A stretch of 64,000 nucleotides of DNA from a candidate division WOR-3 bacterium (GCA_039801365.1 JBDRUN010000003.1:2146-66145); one strand, 5' to 3'; counted from the stretch's first letter, positions 13,498 to 37,530 are shown. Notes: generated by a model not told the origin, from the sequence alone. Numbers and translations: made by a program.

Positions 13498-14360
13498 CAT
13501 TTTGCACGCCGCAGGACGATTACGGCAAGGTTGCGGCCAGCAGTGCCGTCACGGCGGACCGAGTAGAAGTGCTCCGGGTTCTCTTTGGTGCAGAGGTCGA
13601 GCGAGCCGGCCTCGACGAGGCCCAACCCCGTGAGCAGGCTGCGGTTGGCGGAGCGGAGGTCGAGGTGGAAGCGAAAATGGTTCCAGGGTCCCAGGGTTCT
13701 AGGGTTCAAGGGGTCGAACCGTTGGCTTTCCGATACCTCCTGTTGTTCCGCTGGACGGAGGAAACGGTCGGCCGAGGGGAACTGTTGGCGAAACTCGGCG
13801 GCGACATCCTCACCTACAACGTAGCAGTCAGCGCAGATGCAGGGGCCGAGGGCGAAGTGCAGACGCGGTAGCGGAACCGAGAATCGTTCGGACATCTGTT
13901 GTGCGAGTTTCTCGGCAAGTCTGGTGGCGGTGCCCCGCCATCCGCAGTGGGCAAGGCCGACTACAGGTGGTTTGCATGACCAGATATACACCGGCAGGCA
14001 GTCCGCAACCTTGATGCCGAGTCCGATGCCGGGTAAATCGCTGAAGGCTGCGTCAGCCTCCTGTTGCTTTTCCTGCTTGTCCGGTTCGGCGAAGAATACC
14101 ACCCGTGCAGAGTGAATCTGGTTCATTGTGAAGAGTGTAGTGATGCCAAGGGCGTGCCTGACCCGACGCAGATTTTCTCTGACCGCGTGCTCTTCATCGC
14201 CAACCTGCAGGGACAGGTTCAGAGAATCGTAAGGGCCGCGCGAGACACCGCCCTTGCGGGTAGTGAAGGCTATCACAAAGCCAGGAGCGGGTTGAGACTC
14301 GTAGTATTCTATTCCATTCGCCAGGTGGATTCGCCAGTTCGCCGGAACGCAACCAGGCAT
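13494..14360 (-). CDS. pgeF: YfiH/PgeF-family protein (DUF152, laccase-domain / peptidoglycan editing factor) carrying an in-frame octamer-repeat insertion
   Basis: FTTRKGGVS..SLNLS, HAVRENL, VADCLPV, GLAHCGWRG, and C-terminal RRDG.AGRNL motifs typical of COG1496; 288 aa versus about 250 typical. Confidence 0.7.
   Translation of the reverse strand: MPGCVPANWRIHLANGIEYYESQPAPGFVIAFTTRKGGVSRGPYDSLNLSLQVGDEEHAVRENLRRVRHALGITTLFTMNQIHSARVVFFAEPDKQEKQQEADAAFSDLPGIGLGIKVADCLPVYIWSCKPPVVGLAHCGWRGTATRLAEKLAQQMSERFSVPLPRLHFALGPCICADCYVVGEDVAAEFRQQFPSADRFLRPAEQQEVSESQRFDPLNPRTLGPWNHFRFHLDLRSANRSLLTGLGLVEAGSLDLCTKENPEHFYSVRRDGTAGRNLAVIVLRRAKW
13681..13720. repeat. Octamer tandem array (TTCNAGGG, 5 copies) in-frame inside pgeF, encoding DPLNPRTLGPWNHF
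   Basis: Direct reading: ttccaggg tcccaggg ttctaggg ttcaaggg gtcgaacc. Confidence 0.8.
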
Positions 14361-14375
14361 CTTGATCGGTCCGCG

Positions 14376-16103
14376 TTATCTCGGTGTTCGTGTCCGCAGG
14401 TCGGTCAGTATGAGCCGAGTGGCAGCACGGCCTTGGTGCGTATTTCTATCCACGGTGAAGCAGATGTCGAGGTAGTCTTTACAGCCGACCTCGATGTCGG
14501 TCAAGAGCTCGCTGCGACGCCAGGCGACTGCGTCACGCACGGTCTCGCCCGAGCGCAGGGCTAGTTTCAGGTGTTCCTGGTTGCGGCCGAACCGCCGTGG
14601 GAATCCTACAACCTCGAGTCCGAGAGTAGCGAAGACCGGACGCCGGTTCTCAGGTCCGTATGGTTCGAGTTGGTCGAGGAACCGGACAAGGTCGTCGTTG
14701 ATCTCGTCAAGCTGACACACTGCATCAACGTCAATGCTGGGCTTGTACAGCTCCTCGGGCAGGCTGTCGGCATAGCGATTGATAGCATCGGTGAACTGCG
14801 GTATTCGGTTGCGGTCAATTACGAGCCCGGCGGCATACTTGTGTCCACCGAAACTGGACAGGTACTCAGCGGCTGCTTTGAGCGATTCATAAAGATTGAA
14901 ACCGTTGACCGAGCGGCCCGAACCCTTTCCCGTTTCGCCCTCAAGCGAAATGACGATGCAGGGCCGGTAGTAGCGTTCGACCAGCCGGGTTGCGACGATG
15001 CCAATTACACCCCGGTGCCAGTCCTCCTGGGCCACGACCACGACACGGCGCTTGTCGAGTCCCTCGGCTTCGACGCGGGCCATTGCCTGTTTCGTTGTCT
15101 CTTCGCCTCGAGTCTGACGGTCTCGGTTGTGGGCGTCAAGCTCGGCGGCAAGGCGGTCGGCCTGGGTCTGGTCGTCGGCGAGCAGAAGTTCAAGCGCGGT
15201 GCTGGCGTGGCTGATACGGCCTGCAGCGTTCAGACGCGGGCCGATGATGAAACCGACATCGTAACTTGTGAGCGGTCGGTCCGGGATTCCAGCACGGCGC
15301 ATCAGGGCGCGCAGCCCGGGTCGGTCGGTTGAGCGAATTGCAGCAAGTCCAAGTCTTGCCAGGATGCGGTTCTCACCAACCAGCGGAACCATATCGGCGA
15401 TAGTGCCGATGCCGACTAGGTCGAGGAGGCAGGTAAGTTCCTGTCGGGGCCGGCCGAGTGCAGAAAGGAGGCTCCAGACAAGTTTGAAAGCGACGCCGAC
15501 GCCGGCCAGCTCGGTAAATGGGTAGGCAGAGCCGGGTCGTTTAGGGTTGACCAGGGCAAGTGCTCGCGGCGGTTCGACCGGCACTTCGTGGTGGTCAGTG
15601 ATGATTACGTCAATACTGGCCGCGGCCGCAGCGGTCACTGCTTCACGGTCGGTTGAACCGCAGTCGTTGGTGATGAGCAGCTTCGCGCCTGTTTCGCGAC
15701 AGAACTCGACGCCGGCAAGCGAGAGACCGTATCCTTCGGACTCGCGGTGCGGCAGGTAATAGACCACATCCGCTCCGAGCCGGCGCAGCGCGGACACAAG
15801 CAGGCAGGTACCGGTGACGCCGTCTGCATCATAGTCGCCGTACACGCAGATGCGCTCCCGGCGTTCGAGTGCCGCAATAATCCGCTCGGTCGCGACCTTG
15901 ATGTCGGGGAGAGTTGCGGGCTGGTGCAGCAGGGCTGGAGAGGGTGTGAGAAAACCGCGGATTGCGTCGGCACTGGCAAGGCCGCGGCGGAGCATCAGCC
16001 GGATTGCGAGTTCAGGCAGGTTCAGTTCTCGCGCGAGGAGAGCTGTATCCGCCGCAGGCGGCTCAGGCAGATGCCAGTGTAACGAAGGAGTCAGTTCAGA
16101 CAT
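14376..16103 (-). CDS. recJ: Single-stranded-DNA-specific exonuclease RecJ
   Basis: DHH motif region (VYGDYDADGVTG, ITDHH), DHHA1 region (GGHKYAAG), RecJ OB-fold C-terminus. Confidence 0.9.
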   Translation of the reverse strand: MSELTPSLHWHLPEPPAADTALLARELNLPELAIRLMLRRGLASADAIRGFLTPSPALLHQPATLPDIKVATERIIAALERRERICVYGDYDADGVTGTCLLVSALRRLGADVVYYLPHRESEGYGLSLAGVEFCRETGAKLLITNDCGSTDREAVTAAAAASIDVIITDHHEVPVEPPRALALVNPKRPGSAYPFTELAGVGVAFKLVWSLLSALGRPRQELTCLLDLVGIGTIADMVPLVGENRILARLGLAAIRSTDRPGLRALMRRAGIPDRPLTSYDVGFIIGPRLNAAGRISHASTALELLLADDQTQADRLAAELDAHNRDRQTRGEETTKQAMARVEAEGLDKRRVVVVAQEDWHRGVIGIVATRLVERYYRPCIVISLEGETGKGSGRSVNGFNLYESLKAAAEYLSSFGGHKYAAGLVIDRNRIPQFTDAINRYADSLPEELYKPSIDVDAVCQLDEINDDLVRFLDQLEPYGPENRRPVFATLGLEVVGFPRRFGRNQEHLKLALRSGETVRDAVAWRRSELLTDIEVGCKDYLDICFTVDRNTHQGRAATRLILTDLRTRTPR

Positions 16104-16220
16104 GCTAAGTTCTAGCCATCAGAACGCGGAAGTCAAGCAGAGAAGGGGTTTGAGGGCCAAGTGAAGGCCATCGGACTCGGTTGGTCCGATTCCCCACTGG
16201 AACCATTCAATCCTGGAGCC

Positions 16221-36950: not shown

Positions 36951-37314
36951 CGTGCAGTCATACCGAGACCTTGAGGTCTGGAGGAAAGCGATTGACCTCG
37001 TTACTGAGACGTATCGGCTATCGCGCAGATTCCCGAAGGACGAAATCTACTCACTTACGAGCCAGATTCGCCGGGCAGCCACTTCGATTCCGGCCAACAT
37101 CGCTGAGGGGTGGGGCCGGAATATGACGAAGGAGTATGTCCAGTTCCTGCGGATTGCCCGGGGCTCTCTACACGAACTGGAGACGCACTTGGAAGTGTCT
37201 TGTAACCTCGATTACTTCGGGCCGACCGAGTTGGACGCTATGCTCGGTAGGACGCACGAAATCAACAAGATGCTCAACAGCTTGATACGAGCCATTGAAG
37301 CCAATGGGCATTAG
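36940..37314 (+). CDS. Four-helix-bundle protein (TIGR02436 / 23S rRNA IVS protein family), paralog 2
   Basis: SYRDLEVWRKAIDLVTETYRLSRRFPKDEIYSLTSQIRRAATSIPANIAEGWGR...SLHELETHL; about 45% identical to the 29164 paralog. Confidence 0.8.
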   Translation: MGNRVQSYRDLEVWRKAIDLVTETYRLSRRFPKDEIYSLTSQIRRAATSIPANIAEGWGRNMTKEYVQFLRIARGSLHELETHLEVSCNLDYFGPTELDAMLGRTHEINKMLNSLIRAIEANGH

Positions 37315-37460
37315 GCAATGGGCGTGGCACAGGAATTAGGCAATGGGCAACAGGCATTGTTAGGCAATGGCTATTGGCTATTGCCTTCCGGAGCGGCTCC
37401 TGCCTACTGGCTTTCCGCGCCGGTCATTGTCTGTCCTGCTATTGGCTCCTGCCTATTGGC
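37306..37460. repeat. Extended degenerate heptamer region (GGCAATGG / GCATTAG / CTATTGG units in both orientations), right flank of four-helix-bundle gene 2
   Basis: ccaatgg gcattag gcaatgg ... ttaggcaatgg ctattgg ctattgc ... ctattggctcctgcctattggctaattggctg. Confidence 0.6.
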
Positions 37461-37493
37461 TAATTGGCTGCGTGCCCCTGGCACGTTTGCTGC

Positions 37494-37530
37494 GACAGAC
37501 AGACAGACAGACAGACAGACAGACAGACAG
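37494..37530. repeat. Tetranucleotide microsatellite (GACA)9
   Basis: Direct reading; about 90 nt upstream of the lipoprotein start at 37623. Confidence 0.9.

Follow-up and report, generated by a model that had tools for sequence, protein, structure and literature searches.

A stretch of 64,000 nucleotides from a candidate division WOR-3 bacterium (GCA_039801365.1 JBDRUN010000003.1:2146-66145, here called the window) contains dispersed tandem arrays with units of 7 or 8 nt. At a probability of roughly 0.7, these arrays are of one kind of small element. Its complete form is a cassette of ~0.5 kb in which a gene of the PF05635/TIGR02436 four-helix-bundle family is placed between inverted arrays, and its relatives without an open reading frame (ORF), hairpins of an array with its inverted copy and also solo arrays, remain at sites that can absorb additional sequence: the spacers of operons, helices of RNase P and variable loops of proteins. 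A first-pass annotation made from the sequence alone had recorded the arrays and overlooked the two PF05635 genes that lie exactly between inverted arrays and that are the key to what the arrays are. This cassette architecture is real and is a general feature of the gene family.

A full cassette consists of ~4-5 tandem units of 7 nt (8 nt in one clade), a Shine-Dalgarno sequence, a gene of ~120 codons and the reverse-complement array. The element is not a new kind of thing; it is the intervening sequence (IVS) element known since 1993, met outside rRNA and with ends made of tandem 7- or 8-nt arrays. New to the searched literature are the generality of the link between gene and arrays, its reach to GGGAATC repeats and to repeats of the type of the short tandemly repeated repetitive (STRR) sequences, and the insertions in RNase P RNA and, in frame, in proteins.

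Two cassettes and an empty site

The window has one cassette of octamer type and one of heptamer type (Table 1), and in each a PF05635 gene has an array on one side and the reverse-complement array on the other. In cassette 1 a GGAGG Shine-Dalgarno motif is present upstream of the gene for the first protein, IVP1, and the 3′ arm overlaps the IVP1 stop codon and ends 8 nt ahead of the hypC ATG. In cassette 2 the 5′ arm gives the aspartyl-protease-like ORF upstream its TAG stop and the second protein, IVP2, its ATG, and a hairpin is predicted in the 3′ region (fold z = -2.9). The inverted arms are 86-91% complementary, and in the minimum-free-energy fold of cassette 1 RNA the 5′ and 3′ arms pair around the ORF.

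IVP1 and IVP2 are 43% identical. Both match Pfam PF05635 (E 5.9e-35 and 1.9e-39; cutoff 33.8 bits, scores 120.1 and 134.6, with 105-106 of the 106 model positions aligned) and TIGR02436 of NCBIfam (118.9 and 129.1 bits; cutoff 24). Residues 3-120 of IVP1 match Xcc0516, the pentamer of which has been solved (PDB 2GSC; E 1.9e-25), and the conserved family motif GxxRxxxSxxxNxxE (Zhang and Ye 2013) is kept in both proteins, as SQIRRAAVSVPSNIAEG and SQIRRAATSIPANIAEG. Exact look-up of the two proteins in the contig index recorded neither, PADLOC gave no match that would point to a defence role, and zero matches among 50,697 phage records speak against carriage by phage.

Cassette 1 is an insertion comprising both arrays, because two WOR-3 relatives, GCA_965649195.1 and GCA_965649205.1 (L001 and L002 below), are without it, arrays included. 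L001 is 99.9% identical to the window over 29579-35494 and L002 is ~80% identical. Absent from both is the segment at ~29091-29578, with ~485 extra bases of array, gene and inverted array, and in the two the stop codon of the 451-aa gene upstream is parted from the ATG of hypC by a spacer of 6-8 nt. As neither array is present at these empty sites, the arrays came, or went, together with the gene. Cassette 2 is present in L001, where its ORF bears a CAG>TAG nonsense mutation.

The identity of L001 to the window differs between three adjacent segments, being 92.9% over L001 positions 194-1392, 99.9% over 1401-7316 and 90.8% over 8183-9567, and the breakpoints coincide with array or cassette sites or lie close to them, a pattern suggestive of strain-to-strain recombination or of a chimeric metagenome contig. 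A sigma-70-like sequence, TGAACA-17-TAGAAT, is within the 3′ arm of cassette 1 (29532-29560) and faces hypC. It is a weak match to the consensus, of which 0.4 were expected and 1 was found; were it genuine, it could counteract the polar effect of the insertion. The promoter search found none near cassette 2.

The gene and its arrays across phyla

Generality was assessed in a scan that started from the PF05635 gene, with one genome per species, 80 loci and ~79-81 evaluable genes. The loci span Acidobacteriota, Planctomycetota, Bacteroidota, Chloroflexota, Patescibacteria, Firmicutes, Proteobacteria, Cyanobacteria, Verrucomicrobiota, Gemmatimonadota, Elusimicrobiota and WOR-3. An array of period 7 or 8 is no more than 200 nt from 68 of 79 genes and on both sides of 41, and in 31 of these 41 the units on the two sides are reverse complements with at most one mismatch. 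By a gap-tolerant measure, a complementarity score of at least 30 between inverted flanks is reached by 83% of genes and by 2% of 396 shifted controls. Period-7 arrays are ~12 times as dense up to 150 nt from the gene (1.69/kb) as in the rest of the flanks (0.143/kb), period-8 arrays have a density of 0.19 near the gene against 0.025 in the flanks, and other periods are not enriched. When periods 7 and 8 are combined, the 200 nt nearest the gene have 3.2/kb and more distant sequence has 0.08-0.31/kb.

The geometry of the arms is also regular. The number of units per arm has a sharp peak at 4-5 (interquartile range 3.9-5.4), with array copy number varying between copies of the element. The 5′ arm ends a median of 23 nt ahead of the start codon, and the 3′ arm starts ~10 nt past the stop codon or overlaps it. 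Unit sequences vary, yet their polarity is common across elements: the sense strand of the 5′ arm is 36% G and 16% C, and AG occurs in 81% of units.

Closely related elements, some of them paired across phyla, have inherited arrays and gene together. Where proteins are at least 60% identical, flank DNA is similar in 27-29% of pairs, cross-phylum cases included, against 1% of more distant pairs. The nearest proteins to IVP1, from the octamer-type cassette, belong to a deltaproteobacterium and a Desulfosarcina, whose cassettes have 8-nt units of nearly the same sequence (AGGATTCA in one case and AGGGGTCC with CTTGAACC in the other). The octamer-type elements are mutual relatives, and the 8-nt period tracks one protein clade. 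A family member in a further WOR-3 relative, L005 (4860-5520), has inverted flanks with units of ~15 nt (ACTAGTG... and CCACTAGCC...), so the period is not invariably 7 or 8.

In Xanthomonas, Stenotrophomonas and Dokdonella an Xcc0516-type gene is between accB and accC, with GGGAATC x4 upstream and CCCATTC x4 downstream, and the CCCATTC array of the Xanthomonadales ends at the accC ATG. In all three genera accC starts right after this C-rich 3′ array and a Shine-Dalgarno sequence is not visible; in Dokdonella and Stenotrophomonas the four-helix-bundle ORF begins within the 5′ array (MENGESS...). The GGGAATC repeats of Xanthomonas have been studied as G-quadruplex-forming sequences, with ~70 convergent pairs per genome and lengths that vary between species; they were reported not to be associated with mobile elements, and the four-helix-bundle gene was unmentioned (Rehm et al. 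2015, PMC4692102).

The classical hosts of STRR sequences, Nostoc and Calothrix, supply most of the matches on plasmids. In Calothrix brevissima AGGGTGT x4 precedes the gene and CTACACC x4 follows it; the corresponding arrays of Nostoc edaphicum are AGTAGGG x7 and TCCCTAC x5. The resemblance to STRR sequences that had been proposed for the window thus holds and is closer than was supposed, since these plasmids carry the same cassette of gene plus inverted arrays. In Nostoc PCC 7120, WP_010994075.1 is annotated on two plasmids, gamma and alpha, in shared DNA that is ~91% identical over 450 bp; the copies have 5 and 6 CCTCTGC units downstream, and their upstream sequences are unrelated with IS elements adjoining. 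A Nostoc preprint postulates an unidentified protein that binds heptamer repeats.

The single published case of a link between the gene and heptamers is the 23S rRNA IVS of Coxiella burnetii, where the S23p ORF is preceded by tandem GACAGAT heptamers (x2-3, the number varying by strain) and RNase III cuts a terminal stem of 28 bp (Warrier et al. 2016, PMC4990558). Apart from it, the literature search found no paper linking heptamer arrays generally to PF05635, an absence that is not proof with most subscription journals outside the search. A Leptospira 23S rRNA IVS carrying an S23p ORF is also on record (Ralph and McClelland 1993, as cited by Zhang and Ye 2013 and Warrier et al. 2016). Genes of PF05635 type have been found inside cas operons (Zhang and Ye 2013), a location that fits insertion into operon spacers.

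Arrays without the gene

The arrays of the window were detected with Tandem Repeats Finder and with our own lag scans over the 64 kb, and all those named by the first-pass annotation are real, fall into families as it had proposed and lie within a few bases of where it had placed them. Its octamer list needs one amendment: the arrays are present, but two of them, at 16972 and 29541, run in reverse complement to the rest, and orientation matters. At a score of at least 10 the lag scan gives six arrays of period 7 and five of period 8 against ~0.2 in shuffles. The excess is confined to periods 7 and 8 and their multiples, and at that score the window has zero arrays of periods 5, 6, 9, 10 or 11. 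Arrays of period 7 or 8 number zero in 50 kb of Escherichia coli K-12 and zero in 22 kb of L002. With a looser threshold all 19 arrays fall within 13-38 kb, 0-13 kb and 38-64 kb being empty. The window is core chromosome (tuf, nusG, rplL, rpoBC, rpsL, recJ, rnpB, a C25 peptidase gene, uvrB, polA and polysaccharide genes), and its closest uvrB relatives are named candidate division WOR-3. No paper was found describing such arrays in WOR-3 or other candidate phyla, in keeping with the novelty earlier claimed for them.

L001, an independent assembly, has the arrays of uvrB, of the DegT-family gene and of the surroundings of cassette 2 as well, and so the arrays are not assembly artefacts, the reading on which their first description would have fallen. 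The heptamer and octamer arrays are identical between the window and L001, and the sole polymorphic repeat is (GACA)n, one unit longer in L001 and with GGCA variants. The (GACA)9 that had been listed with the others is present, but it is an ordinary tetranucleotide repeat outside the heptamer/octamer class. A 237-aa gene, whose product starts like a signal peptide and matches nothing in Pfam, follows ~75 nt downstream, and the repeat is a candidate contingency repeat. For the heptamer and octamer arrays the possibility of phase-variable contingency repeats was considered and rejected, given their identity in L001 and the position of many of them in frame in genes or in RNase P RNA; phase variation, one of the functions initially suggested, is unlikely for most arrays, several being in frame and two inside RNase P RNA.

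Table 1. Cassettes, arrays and related features, by position in the window
Feature	Position	Strand	Description
Cassette 1 5′ arm	29091..29133	+	~4.6 copies of AAGGGTTC; begins 5 nt past stop codon of upstream 451-aa gene
IVP1	29164..29541	+	125-aa PF05635/TIGR02436 four-helix-bundle protein (23S rRNA IVS protein, Avd-like)
Cassette 1 3′ arm	29533..29580	+	~4.9 copies of GAACCCTN, reverse complement of 5′ arm
Cassette 2 5′ arm	36920..36948	+	TAGGCAA/TAGCCAA x4.1
IVP2	36940..37314	+	124-aa PF05635/TIGR02436 protein
Cassette 2 3′ region	37306..37475	+	direct TAGGCAATGGGC units, then inverted GCCTATTGGC units
RNase P RNA gene	21915-22437	-	523 nt against a 367-position model (Rfam alignment)
ORF-less octamer hairpin	22344..22409	-	66-nt insert in P3 loop of RNase P RNA
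Second hairpin, AAGGAAT heptamers	21960..22035	-	in 62-nt extra segment near 3′ end of RNase P RNA; fold z = -5.9
Solo octamer array GGTTCNAG x4.2	13679..13712	-	in frame, loop of Cu-oxidase_4/YfiH-family gene 13494-14360
Two adjacent octamer arrays, GGGACAGA-type and GAACCCTG-type	16929..17000	-	in frame, PMT_2 + TPR membrane protein gene 16221-18347
GGTCGGC x4.1	18310..18338	-	codes N-terminal tail RRPPTADRRP of PMT_2 + TPR gene
Degenerate heptamer array	27266..27309	+	within 20-aa in-frame insertion (relative to L002) of carbamate-kinase-like gene
Further degenerate heptamer arrays	~26930-26980 (smaller); 27610-27647		
AAGGGTTC x3.6, then CAGATNN/CAGATTG heptamers	27738..27830	+	junction of two genes, ahead of signal peptide of 451-aa ORF
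GATTGCA x3.3	32343..32365	-	in frame near C-terminus of DegT-family aminotransferase gene; also in L001
AGCCAAT x4	35286..35316	+	uvrB linker before UVR domain
(GACA)9.5	37494-37531	+	upstream of gene 37608-38321
GGGTTCNA octamer arrays, one orientation	13679-13712, 22347-22377, 27738-27772, 29097-29133		
GGGTTCNA octamer arrays, reverse orientation	16972-17000, 29533-29572		
CAGATTG heptamer arrays	27787-27830, 32343-32365		
AGCCAAT/AGGCAAT heptamer arrays	35286-35316, 36920-36948, 37306-37475		

The ORF-less forms are seen most fully in the RNase P RNA gene, which is enlarged at three places, by 66 nt in P3, by 22 nt in P12 and by 62 nt close to the 3′ end. The P3 insert consists of an octamer array and a degenerate inverted copy, and it folds as an extension of the helix (z = -4.2). 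RNase P RNA of L002 has a tight P3 hairpin without the insert and, instead, a 94-nt expansion of P12.

Solo arrays occur inside several protein-coding genes. The loop of the YfiH-family protein that carries one is ~20 aa longer than in solved homologues, and no hairpin fold was found at that array (13679-13712). The gene for the PMT_2/TPR membrane protein has in-frame arrays at three places, and the carbamate-kinase-like gene has, relative to L002, in-frame insertions of 20 aa and 7 aa in degenerate heptamer sequence. The site at 27738-27830 has a different sequence in L001 and L002. In uvrB the fourth unit of the array has an A>G change by which a would-be in-frame TAG is TGG; the unit is the same as that of cassette 2, 1.6 kb downstream. 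Many WOR-3 orthologues of UvrB have a linker of equal length with differing peptides of 7-residue periodicity (MTNDEARMTN, IVNSELGIV, REEGSEGGV), which implies heptamer arrays of differing units at the site orthologous to 35270-35332 of the window, and uvrB of L002 has a degenerate AGACNGC array at the same position in the linker. From the differing peptides and the L002 array it follows that the uvrB site has long been heptamer-bearing, with turnover of the unit.

Metagenomes were also searched starting from the arrays, with three exact AGGGTTCN units as the query, and many of the arrays so found sit in long open frames. At the gene-centred loci, ORF-less inverted pairs are present, and 24% of solo arrays have the same unit as the cassette of their locus, the figure being 2.7% for other loci. 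The gene is nearly always accompanied by arrays, and most arrays are without the gene; solo arrays may have descended from cassettes.

Two other kinds of repeat lie near or in the membrane protein gene 16221-18347. A 12-nt repeat (GGTCAAGGACAG x2.2) and an 8-nt repeat (GGCCACTG x2.9) are just upstream of its start, at 18369-18426. A separate small palindromic repeat, CCCTCCCCCTTGAAGGGGGAGGG, occurs twice in frame in the gene (17514-17536 and 17744-17773), where it encodes SPFKGEG-type peptides, and recurs in L001 at 97-163, upstream of the homologue of the 451-aa gene. It seems to belong to a second hairpin-element family of this lineage.

Known relatives, competing explanations and wider bearing

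The cassettes share with 23S rRNA IVSs the gene family, a length of ~0.45-0.5 kb, a terminal inverted-repeat stem around the ORF, found here both as arm complementarity and in the fold, and a sporadic distribution that suggests horizontal transfer. They differ from them in being located between protein-coding genes, in operon spacers of 6-8 nt, with ORF-less forms in RNase P RNA and in protein-coding loops, and in having both ends made wholly of tandem 7- or 8-nt arrays; there is no rRNA gene in the window and so the location in a 23S helix that defines an IVS does not apply. With the STRR sequences of heterocystous cyanobacteria and the GGGGA(C/T)T repeats of Nostoc PCC 7120 (PMC4692102) the arrays share tandem 7-nt units, a few to tens of copies, dispersal over many loci and one G-rich strand, and such arrays stand on both sides of the plasmid-borne gene copies of Nostoc and Calothrix. 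Unlike those repeats they are in a WOR-3 host and not a heterocystous cyanobacterium and have an octamer family besides, and the published descriptions of STRR sequences concern the repeats alone with no connection made to PF05635. The GGGAATC repeats of Xanthomonas are alike in being heptamer arrays with many convergent inverted pairs and with length variation, and they exactly bracket the Xcc0516-type gene.

The Avd protein of diversity-generating retroelements has a homologous four-helix-bundle fold with a solved pentameric relative (2GSC), and there are weak bAvd and DivGenRetAVD matches. That either protein is an Avd was nevertheless rejected, the DivGenRetAVD scores being 25.2 and 29.0 bits against a cutoff of 80, and the window having neither a reverse transcriptase (no such domain in 55 ORFs) nor a pair of template and variable repeats. 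Rickettsia palindromic elements and bacterial MITEs (miniature transposable elements with inverted repeats) are small non-coding repeats tolerated in frame in protein loops and in structural RNAs; they are single palindromic units of ~100-150 bp, not tandem 7- or 8-nt arrays, and we know of no conserved companion gene for them.

How a cassette would work can be sketched. The paired arrays would be the cis-acting ends of the element, and slipped-strand mispairing may grow, shrink and homogenise them. The stem formed by the arms may, by analogy, let host transcripts tolerate the cassette; excision of such stems by RNase III has been demonstrated for rRNA IVSs only (PMC4990558). Movement would rely on an enzyme encoded elsewhere in the genome. 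The pentameric protein may bind the arrays, roughly one unit per subunit, as is suggested by the peak at 4-5 units, the tracking of period with protein clades and an AG core that recurs in the units. Maintenance of the stem through sense-RNA pairing was considered and dropped, as arm mismatches show no excess of G.U-compatible changes (90 against 101). With over half of the mismatches being transversions as well, the similarity of the arms is more likely due to common origin, to conversion between arms or to recognition of each arm by the same protein.

This absence of a pairing signal is among several observations that weigh against the arrays being the ends of a mobile cassette and its descendants. 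At the cassette 1 junction, the sole full pair of filled and empty sites, no target-site duplication is definable. A dedicated enzyme, raised earlier as a transposase, HNH or IS200-like TnpA, is not to be seen, domains of transposase, reverse transcriptase, HNH and integrase being present in none of the 55 ORFs of the window. The Xanthomonadales cassette is fixed between accB and accC across genera and, having kept one locus, must move rarely. Overall, unit sequence and protein identity are weakly correlated (rho 0.07), with the signal among close relatives only. In metagenomes a PF05635 gene is within ~700 nt of only 2-3 of 44 evaluable AGGGTTCN arrays, and an inverted partner is present for only 6-7 of 80; with most metagenomic arrays standing alone, the claim that all solo arrays are remnants of cassettes has been lowered. 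The uvrB linker fits long residence and turnover in place better than repeated insertion.

Several of these same facts would be expected if the arrays were targets and not ends, that is, if they arose independently and the PF05635 gene inserted into the loop of existing array hairpins. The many arrays without an adjacent gene, the ORF-less inverted pairs, the ~70 convergent array pairs of Xanthomonas (PMC4692102), and units that vary between cassettes even within one genome and correlate weakly with protein identity are all on its side. Insertion into a standing hairpin would leave arrays at the empty site, and the cassette 1 site of L001 and L002 has neither; nor does it sit well with the flank DNA shared by proteins of at least 60% identity from different genomes and phyla, with an octamer period that tracks a protein clade or with units that are strand-asymmetric relative to the gene, and it is considered unlikely. 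Another possibility is that the arrays resemble MITEs, or the repetitive extragenic palindromes (REPs) and bacterial interspersed mosaic elements, moved in trans by a transposase elsewhere such as a REP-associated tyrosine transposase or IS200/IS605 TnpA, with the four-helix-bundle gene as cargo. The ends do form hairpins, ORF-less derivatives exist, the cassette encodes no recognisable enzyme and an IS200/IS605 tnpA is ~1.1 kb from one Nostoc copy, though in an IS-rich plasmid region. Yet 64 kb without a transposase, no target-site duplication seen at the single filled/empty junction, units that are tandem repeats of 7-8 nt and not palindromes of 20-40 nt, and one and the same gene across many phyla, unexpected for cargo, make this the least probable of the explanations considered.

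Ordinary slippage with a preference for 7 nt, some arrays serving as phase-variation or regulatory switches and the nearness of PF05635 being incidental, would draw on the excess of heptamers in many bacterial genomes and the polymerase-slippage hypothesis for it (as cited in PMC4692102), and on copy numbers that differ between copies and strains; the (GACA)n of the window does behave in this way. For the arrays that flank the gene it is already largely refuted by inverted flanks in 83% of family genes against 2% of controls, a 12- to 20-fold density beside the gene for periods 7 and 8 only, the reverse-complement relation of 5′ and 3′ arrays with fixed polarity, and the insertion of arrays and gene as a single unit. 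Many arrays, moreover, are in frame or in RNase P RNA, where on/off switching makes no sense, and for the arrays as a whole slippage is quite improbable. The preferred account, of a cassette with inverted arrays as its ends and with ORF-less relatives, is the one that these observations leave best placed.

A bolder proposal, which is tentative, extends that account to function: pentamers of the PF05635 family would be the protein partner of bacterial heptamer repeats, one 7-nt unit (8-nt in one clade) per subunit bound by way of an AG-containing core. Gene and inverted arrays would then be a very widespread and hitherto overlooked class of mobile cassette, and the thousands of solo arrays, among them STRR sequences, GGGAATC repeats and in-frame insertions, its offspring or binding sites.

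PF05635/TIGR02436 is a very common bacterial family, with more than 6,000 members from the second homologue search alone, and the heptamer repeats of cyanobacteria, Xanthomonas and Beggiatoaceae have previously been described without an origin or a partner protein. The link between gene and arrays makes both testable, there being a structure (Xcc0516, PDB 2GSC), a tractable host (Xanthomonas, with the cassette in accBC) and a candidate ligand, (GGGAATC)4-5. For annotation, it accounts for PF05635 genes in operons, including cas operons, for expansions of RNase P RNA and for inserts of 7-residue periodicity such as that of UvrB. If true, the pairing of pentamers with heptamer repeats would explain the 35-year-old puzzle of the STRR sequences and the reported excess of heptamers in bacterial genomes, and the finding reaches beyond a curiosity of one candidate phylum.

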